Source: a virus
Taxonomy: Duplodnaviria; Caudoviricetes
Length of the DNA: 29,545 bases
Virus record (IMG/VR): IMGVR_UViG_3300032312_001032
Location: 1-29,545 of that record
Reading direction: 5' to 3' (one strand)
The notes beneath the pieces are model-generated. The model saw only the letters and a program-made list of their open reading frames with translations. It searched no databases and was not told the DNA's origin. Shown piece by piece: positions 3,791-5,338 of the stretch; the first letter of the stretch is position 1; the number at the start of each line of letters is the position of its first letter. The position numbers and the translations under genes were made by a program.

Positions 3791-3958
3791 ATGAAAAAAG
3801 CATTATTTATCGCCGCATTGGTTGCCTTGACTGCATGCTCAAGTGAAACCTCAACTTCTTCTTCAGATTCAACTTCTGTAGACACCTGCAACATTGATTC
3901 TTTGATTGATAGCGTAGATGCTCATGCAGACACTTTGACTGCTCTATTGAAGAAGTAA
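3791..3958 (+). CDS. 55-aa lipoprotein, not in ORF track
   Basis: MKKALFIAALVALTA|CSSETSTSSSDS...; signal peptide with LTAC lipobox. Confidence 0.85.
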   Translation: MKKALFIAALVALTACSSETSTSSSDSTSVDTCNIDSLIDSVDAHADTLTALLKK

Positions 3959-4071: not shown

Positions 4072-4153
4072 GCCAAAGTGGTGAAATTGGTAGACACACT
4101 GGTCTTAGGAACCAGCGCTTTATCGCTTGCGAGTTCGAGTCTCGCCTTTGGTA
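4072..4153 (+). tRNA. trnL: tRNA-Leu(UAG)
   Basis: GCCAAAG/CTTTGGT acceptor, loop CTTAGGA, long variable arm. Confidence 0.93.
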
Positions 4154-4156
4154 CAA

Positions 4157-4252
4157 GGTGGTAATTAGACGAAAATGAAATTCCTGCTGTGATGTTAACT
4201 TAATCAGCATATTCAGAAGTAGAAATGAGTAATCGCAAATTACTCGCCACCA
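4157..4252 (+). ncRNA. candidate tRNA-mimic structured RNA, 96 nt
   Basis: GGTGGT/GCCACC+A closing stem stacked on GAGTAA-TCGCAAA-TTACTC; long internal stem 4180-4226. Confidence 0.55.
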
Positions 4253-4257
4253 TACAT

Positions 4258-4328
4258 GGCGGATTAGTGTAATGGTAACACATAAGGCTCATAACCTTAA
4301 ATTGGCAGTTCGAGTCTGTCGTCCGCAA
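4258..4328 (+). tRNA. trnM: tRNA-Met(CAU), initiator-like 1:72 mismatch
   Basis: loop CTCATAA; G1xA72 mismatch; only two G-C pairs at the base of the anticodon stem. Confidence 0.85.
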
Positions 4329-4336
4329 CTAAATGT

Positions 4337-4378
4337 ACCTATGAGCATACCATAAGAACTGCTTATAGGTCTTTTTTT
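4337..4378 (+). terminator. terminator-like hairpin inside the tRNA cluster
   Basis: ACCTATGAGCA/TGCTTATAGGT 11-bp stem followed by C and T7. Confidence 0.6.
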
Positions 4379-4465: not shown

Positions 4466-4473
4466 CACCTTAA

Positions 4474-4571
4474 TACCAGTTCGGGTTCGTGAACAAAGGA
4501 GGCCTGTTCTTCTCGTGCAAGAAAGAAATCACGTTAAATCTCCTCACGCTAGGTGGAGTTGGTGACCTAGC
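4474..4571 (+). ncRNA. candidate multi-helix pseudoknotted RNA
   Basis: GC-rich spacer with six candidate helices, including the perfect GCTAGGT/ACCTAGC. Confidence 0.5.
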
Positions 4572-4576
4572 AACAT

Positions 4577-5216: not shown

Positions 5217-5288
5217 GGGTCTATAGTTAAAGGGATATAACAGAAGCCTTCTAAGCTTCTATTCCAGGTTCGAATCCTGGTAGACTCA
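5217..5288 (+). tRNA. trnR: tRNA-Arg(UCU)
   Basis: GAAGC/GCTTC stem with 7-nt loop CTTCTAA. Confidence 0.93.
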
Positions 5289-5338
5289 CTAGAAAATCGA
5301 AAGTACAACTATTTATAATAAATAAAATTACACTGTCG

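Follow-up and report, generated by a model that had tools for sequence, protein, structure and literature searches.

What occupies the tRNA-sized gap between two tRNA genes of a large phage? The window analysed here (29,545 nt of Caudoviricetes DNA, IMG/VR record IMGVR_UViG_3300032312_001032) is a fragment of a large phage with annotated baseplate, primase, exonuclease, and HNH genes, and nine tRNAs were called in it with ARAGORN and Rfam. The window primase has its best match in Flavobacterium phage immuto (45%), and the host is likely a member of the Bacteroidota, judging from this match and from the only species-genome match to the element, in a Schleiferiaceae MAG. The sequencing runs that contain about one-third of the words of the tRNA cluster are mostly lake-water metagenomes, runs with a small word share having been excluded as habitat evidence. 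Between tRNA-Leu(TAG) and tRNA-Met, a sequence-only reading had proposed an RNA that mimics the top half of a tRNA, and the slot itself, with spacers of 3 and 5 nt, was confirmed from the sequence and the tRNA calls. The features of the slot are as follows.

4072-4153, plus strand: tRNA-Leu(TAG), upstream neighbor (tRNA calls; discriminator A4153)
4157-4252, plus strand: whole RNA gene, type-A frame and core (54 distinct type-A loci; boundaries fixed, flanking tRNAs variable)
4157-4162, plus strand: 5' strand of the closing stem P1, partner 4246-4251 (99.3% of cells paired and three of six pairs compensatory in 51 rows)
4167-4226, plus strand: near-invariant 60-nt core, common to three frames (33 invariant columns over 36 distinct cores, some rows having been found with the purine-rich strands in the search pattern)
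4167-4175, plus strand: invariant purine-rich 5' strand (no variation over 36 distinct cores)
4176-4179, plus strand: 5' strand of P2, partner 4212-4215 (100% paired, three of four pairs compensatory, 36 cores)
4185-4189, plus strand: 5' strand of P3, partner 4205-4209 (99.4% paired on 36 cores; C-G to U-A in 6 of 51 type-A rows)
4194-4199, plus strand: apical self-complementary hexamer, predicted dimer contact (hexamer counts over 73 loci; switches on a tree)
4216-4226, plus strand: invariant purine-rich 3' strand with AGUA at 4218-4221 (no variation over 36 distinct cores)
4227-4245, plus strand: 3' hairpin of 6-7 bp with an NGCAA loop, stacked on P1 (six of seven pairs compensatory)
4246-4252, plus strand: 3' strand of P1 and one unpaired, non-conserved base (type-A loci and alignment A1)
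4258-4329, plus strand: tRNA-Met, downstream neighbor (tRNA calls)

Homologues and fold of the RNA gene

Pattern scans of viral contigs, metagenome contigs (50 of 64 parts covered, with 78 of the 120 matching loci true), and species genomes yielded 73 distinct loci that carry the element, the window counted, on phage and metagenome contigs; loci were counted as distinct sequences, not as species. These comprise 54 loci with the frame of the window (type A), five of type B, 11 of type C, and three that are cut off. When 90 sources were scored with model R1, the scores dropped from 73.9 to 28.9 bits with nothing between, and the matches at 28.9 bits and below, which had been selected by pattern, were treated as chance. 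No related loci were found with the neighboring 109-aa protein as the query. A pattern scan of 185,579 species genomes gave a single match, a 2.8-kb tRNA-array contig of a Schleiferiaceae MAG, and no host homologue emerged from 150 other Flavobacteriales genomes, in each of which only 36 candidates were scored. Matches with E up to 0.1 occurred in 14 of the 151 Flavobacteriales genomes and were strong only for the MAG contig; the next best, at 37.1 bits, was rejected as antisense inside a coding frame, and of these 14 the nine that were viewed did not resemble the motif.

Alignment A1 comprises 51 of the 54 type-A loci; of the three omitted, two duplicate retained rows and the third departs from one by a single base. 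Over the full structure, 97.7% of its cells are paired and 11 of 23 pairs are changed on both sides; the paired fraction was reached by none of 500 shuffles and the pair count by five of 500, with slid controls at 34-54%, and RNAalifold returned the same four helices unprompted. What fills the tRNA slot is a non-coding RNA gene that is both conserved and structured. As a single sequence it folds only mildly better than shuffles (z -2.16, six of 200 shuffles being equally good), so the case for the element rests on its homologues.

The outer stems of the proposed fold were borne out, and its middle was not. Stem 4157-4162/4246-4251 with the unpaired A4252, and hairpin 4227-4245, which abuts that stem without a linker, both show strong covariation in the collected homologues. 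The hairpin had been described as 6 bp with a 7-nt loop; it is better drawn with an NGCAA pentaloop (CGCAA in 51, TGCAA in two, and AGCAA in one of 54 type-A loci) and a seventh pair, which is paired in 38 of 51 rows and C-A in 13, the hairpin as a whole being two bases shorter in nine of 51. The long middle helix 4180-4188/4218-4226 was lost altogether, with none of its nine pairs compensatory and one mismatched in 47 of 51 rows. The covarying alternative consists of the nested helices 4176-4179/4212-4215 and 4185-4189/4205-4209, and the model that contains them was calculated at -19.6 kcal/mol, compared with -16.3 for the model with the middle helix. A rod extends from the junction of P1 and the 3' hairpin, comprised of the two purine-rich strands, P2, an asymmetric loop, P3, and the apical loop.

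Both purine-rich strands were present in 40 of the 40 true matches to a pattern that covered only the middle of the element (41 loci, one of them a chance match), and their invariance is consequently not an artefact of the search. The core is not absolutely fixed, since in one RNA-library contig the internal loop differs and the 3' strand has gained a base. Within the two strands, GAA at 4171-4173 lies opposite AGUA and beside a C4170-G4222 pair, where letters and register fit the consensus of a bulged-G/S-turn, which we take to be AGUA facing GAA, with a helix on one side and a Watson-Crick pair on the other. These letters are invariant and hence offer no variation to probe the assignment, and in host 23S rRNA a hairpin is closed by the same two strands; the motif is a candidate suggested by the letters. 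Mimicry of rRNA was not apparent in two Flavobacteriales rRNA sets, where the longest shared words of 8-10 nt were the same as for shuffles.

The surrounding cluster contains other small features. An ORF at 3791-3958 encodes a lipoprotein-like, Ser/Asp-rich protein of 55 aa, is covered by RNA-library contigs, and had no match in PHROG and Pfam searches; a similar small ORF precedes the cluster of L253. An 11-bp hairpin with a 12-nt loop lies at 4335-4372, between tRNA-Met and tRNA-Ser. Between tRNA-Ser and tRNA-Gln, a second non-tRNA slot (4467-4576) holds a conserved structured element of 110 nt, with nine distinct homologues among the fetched loci, a presence in RNA-library contigs, and no match in Rfam, which is possibly a pseudoknot or ribozyme. 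Directly behind the HNH gene, a tRNA fragment at 5800-5853 matches, in its 3' part, the 3' half of a tRNA-Arg(TCT) that is intact in L407, and pairs with a complementary stretch upstream to make a new acceptor-like stem. The fragment is likely the scar of a homing-endonuclease insertion; the tRNA-Arg at 5217-5289 (Rfam tRNA score 26.3 bits) would be the replacement. More stem-closed non-tRNA elements were seen in the tRNA cluster of L253 (G003), directly upstream of tRNA-Thr and downstream of the homologue, and several carrier phages have a tmRNA of their own near the element (L260 at 1708-2110, a minus-strand reading, L530, and L532).

Three frames around one core

Type A, the frame of the window, has a stack of 12-13 bp (6+6 or 6+7, no linker) and an NGCAA loop. 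A tRNA lies within 400 nt in 52 of the 54 loci; the element starts at most 6 nt behind a tRNA in 31, and in 37 a tRNA begins no more than 12 nt past its end, with eight kinds of tRNA found on either side. Type B is a class-II-like tRNA body with a 7-bp acceptor stem, D arm, variable arm, and true T arm, in which the core stands in place of the anticodon arm; the anticodon stem is absent, and the sequence of P2 is wholly changed with its pairing kept. Type C, a frame found outside tRNA clusters, has a TAGCT loop and a stack of 15-17 bp in 10 of 11 loci (12 bp in one mosaic). ARAGORN called no tRNA in two type-C records read end to end or in the complete 64-kb type-B phage.

Carriers of different types have only one to five proteins in common (blastp, six records of 16-184 kb) and each of nine records searched contains one copy of the element, so the module has passed from phage to unrelated phage. 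The whole cassette is cleanly missing from two relatives of the type-B phage. Since the frames differ, the core is near-invariant, and the carriers are unrelated, the core is the selected mobile unit, and the "top half" is read as its carrier. The frames of L470 and L485 are mosaic, through recombination or assembly chimerism across the core.

The interpretation as a tRNA mimic survives in part. The element is a conserved structured RNA, and its outer stack does have the size of a tRNA top half, measuring 12-13 bp in the tRNA-cluster frame versus 15-17 bp outside the clusters; mimicry as its function was not supported. The consensus of the T loop is UUCRA, which is absent from 54 of 54 type-A loci and present only in the five type-B homologues. 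The base after P1 is not a conserved discriminator (T 28, A 17, C 6, and G 3 of 54, four rows being parsed one base off), and the ends of P1 covary away from CC over 51 rows. Conservation is highest in the 60-nt core and lowest in the "top half". A decoy whose 12-bp stack is seen as acceptor plus T arm, receives CCA, and soaks up tRNA-targeting defence enzymes would accord with the stack length kept in tRNA-cluster loci and with the five homologues that have a true tRNA body, T arm included. It is nevertheless improbable, given the missing T-loop consensus, the lack of a conserved discriminator or acceptor identity, the absence of an anticodon-like loop, the concentration of conservation in the core, and the 11 type-C loci that retain the core without a tRNA-like dimension.

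A further reading makes the core an intron, or a passenger that tRNA clusters carry neutrally, and in type B it does sit at the position of an anticodon-loop intron. Exons that could be joined are lacking in types A and C, however, and type B has no anticodon stem, while near-invariance across unrelated phages together with compensatory changes indicates selection; this reading is largely refuted, and we regard it as scarcely credible. The independence of the core from its frame, and a compact build of 60 nt in which the purine-rich internal loops are invariant, would also suit a small-molecule aptamer (e.g. a defence-signal sponge) or a ribozyme domain. Against this, no riboswitch or ribozyme family matched at E up to 10, there is no conserved downstream gene or expression platform, and the topologies of the hammerhead and hairpin ribozymes misfit by eye, making either role distinctly unlikely.

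A constant tRNA body, in which acceptor stem, D arm, and T arm do not change, was also observed with many unrelated inserts replacing the anticodon arm. Among 32 pattern matches, 22 single-body rows of 77-148 nt are without the core and fall by eye into about 18 kinds. Six constant-body genes lie within about 3 kb in L597 (4742-7960), and others occur in L153, L144, L509, L260, L433, L479, L610, L611, and L267. The type-B gene of L288/L589 (4359-4525) has an extra 35-nt insert in the D loop compared with L446 and L420.

The apical palindrome and a predicted dimer

The apical hexamer (4194-4199) reads GTTAAC in 52 of the 73 loci, GTCGAC in 14, GCTAGC in five, and GTTGAC and GTCAAC in one each. 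Its central dinucleotide is TA in 57 loci, CG in 14, and changed singly in two, where about 24 single changes would be expected under independence (kinship ignored), and a second paired change in the hexamer yields GCTAGC. Adjacent bases that change together cannot pair within one chain, which points to a homodimer, and in cofolding of two copies the hexamers pair between the copies. On a 52-row tree built without the hexamer, GTCGAC requires seven changes, at least four of them forced by supported branches; the tree has few columns and an unsettled bootstrap, and the mosaics L470 and L485 inflate the count of independent switches. The base before the hexamer tracks it, being A or G in 13 of 14 GTCGAC loci. 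Templated mutation at a DNA quasi-palindrome can produce paired changes and could also explain those seen here, since GTCAAC, which breaks the palindrome in one of 73 loci, and GTTGAC are mutual reverse complements. Covariance of adjacent loop bases has been used as a sign of intermolecular kissing loops in OLE and GOLLD, which were later seen by cryo-EM (PMC12286853, accessible part). Taken together, the covariation and the cofolding suggest that the element probably dimerises via its apical hexamer.

A rival reading makes assembly the whole function. Dimers or multimers formed via the palindrome and the GCAA/TAGCT loop, in the manner of GOLLD, ROOL, and manA and with no specific protein target, would account for the palindrome covariation; a location in tRNA clusters is common to GOLLD and ROOL (PMC12286853, same part), and cages, trimers, and filaments are described for RNAs of less than 200 nt (10.64898/2026.07.01.735769, in the text available). 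Only one symmetric contact is evident here, however, against at least five conserved contacts per chain in the multimers described in the accessible part of PMC12286853, the second loop varies between frames, and a match to those families in Rfam is absent. An RNA-only assembly is thus considered unlikely.

The stem below the hexamer bears on a further alternative, an RNA anti-CRISPR in which P3 mimics the CRISPR RNA repeat of a host type VI-B or II-C system. The repeats of eight of 61 Flavobacteriales genomes start with the seven letters of P3 and have a similar end, and solitary-repeat anti-CRISPR RNAs exist (PMC10651486, part seen). The likeness is circular, as the repeat search pattern was built on the shared start. 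Moreover, the repeats measure 36-47 nt against a hairpin of 23 nt, their middles are unrelated, only the seven letters are held in common and GCTAGC variants lose one of them, and no CRISPR repeat family matched in Rfam, all of which renders this role very improbable.

Release, putative partner, and relation to known RNAs

RNase P and 3'-processing pathways trim tRNA ends, and with spacers of 1-7 nt the trimming of its neighbors alone would release the RNA. Host enzymes acting on the neighboring tRNAs would free it from the tRNA transcript, the 3' processing of the upstream tRNA-Leu giving its 5' end and the RNase P cut before tRNA-Met its 3' end. Among contigs from six RNA runs, homologues were found in X15, X17, and X18; these contigs extend past both ends of the element and none shows discrete ends, and the libraries may contain DNA. 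The RNA is likely to be processed and stable. Its closing stem and 3' hairpin would serve as a carrier that protects the ends and is interchangeable with a full tRNA body, and the payload would be the 60-base irregular rod, pairing with a second copy via its self-complementary loop. The resulting dimer, with its two arms, may then be a ligand or decoy for an RNA-binding protein of the host.

The near-invariance of the unpaired strands across unrelated phages suggests a conserved partner, and no linked phage protein was found among the carrier records, suggesting in turn that this partner is not supplied by the phage. One small protein family common to carriers of all three types was rejected as a partner; around its relatives the RNA was present at only four of 80 loci, all of them seed phages, and the family occurs in one of five other carrier records (fragments). 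The target could be a protein of the Bacteroidota host, at a chance only slightly short of even, and a defence or regulatory protein would be its likeliest class. The same tentative weight is given to the processed, self-dimerising RNA being a ligand or decoy for a host protein, in which protein binding is the conjectured step; with such an RNA being abundant, this would be the most parsimonious mechanism. More speculative, and rather unlikely in its full form, is a scheme in which freshwater Bacteroidota phages use interchangeable RNA chassis (tRNA-slot stem, tRNA body, and stand-alone stem) to deliver a library of small-RNA cargoes, where the rod would be one of the cargoes, traded horizontally, and would bind a conserved dimeric protein of the host as an RNA-only factor for counter-defence or host takeover.

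The same 60-nt core in three frames represents a natural dissection of payload from carrier, and the palindrome variants and frame swaps are ready-made natural mutants. The core is also small enough for synthesis, probing, structure solution, and use as bait in Flavobacterium lysates. The constant tRNA body with many cargoes, observed in the same phages, suggests that phages hold a whole set of RNA effectors still untapped, as well as a natural counterpart of the engineered tRNA scaffold.

The Rfam check called for by the sequence-only reading gave no family for the element. In Rfam 15, none matched at gathering score (manA, GOLLD, ROOL, EGFOA, Y RNA, tmRNA, riboswitches, and ribozymes included), and at E up to 10 the sole overlap was a snoRNA match on the minus strand (16.8 bits, E 3.5). 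By blastn, cultured phages and plasmids yielded nothing meaningful; in the 50,697 phage records, no alignment spanned more than 23% of the query. A literature search, within limits that placed the alignments of the structured-RNA catalogue PMC10690425 outside it, returned no description of the motif; the motif is absent from the accessible part of the supplement of that phage catalogue and may be among its remaining candidates. The RNA motif is real and apparently uncatalogued; its covarying palindrome and the swapping of its frames set it apart.

The orphan stable RNAs of phage tRNA clusters, such as RNA C and RNA D of T4, have had no assigned role for decades, and we know of no frame swapping in either of these two. 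RNA C (species 1) and RNA D (species 2) are likewise small non-tRNA genes in a phage tRNA cluster (NC_000866), and their roles are called unknown in the accessible parts of PMC3014915 and PMC9697503. The T4 region (L528) has no match to model R1, and at the end of RNA C there is a true T arm, which type A lacks. The tRNA-like domain of tmRNA is also a tRNA-like frame bearing a non-tRNA module. The same arrangement, as here, is found in YrlA-type Y RNAs (PMC4201824, part seen). The element differs from both, with no Rfam or ARAGORN match to them, neither a tag reading frame nor a conserved identity of the acceptor, and a module that also exists without a tRNA-like frame. The allo-tRNAs with 8/4 and 9/3 branches resemble type A in their 12-bp coaxial branch, non-standard split, and occurrence in phage tRNA clusters, but are cloverleaves with an anticodon and a T loop, neither of which type A has; a 6/6 split is not mentioned among their forms in the accessible part of the same source (PMC5389517). 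GOLLD, ROOL, OLE, and manA/EGFOA are phage or tRNA-island RNAs whose function is likewise unknown (PMC12286853, accessible part), compared with which the element is far smaller (96 nt, with a 60-nt core) and has one evident symmetric contact. Subject to the caveats of recombination and templated mutation, it has in common with the homo-multimeric RNAs a palindromic loop with adjacent-base covariation.
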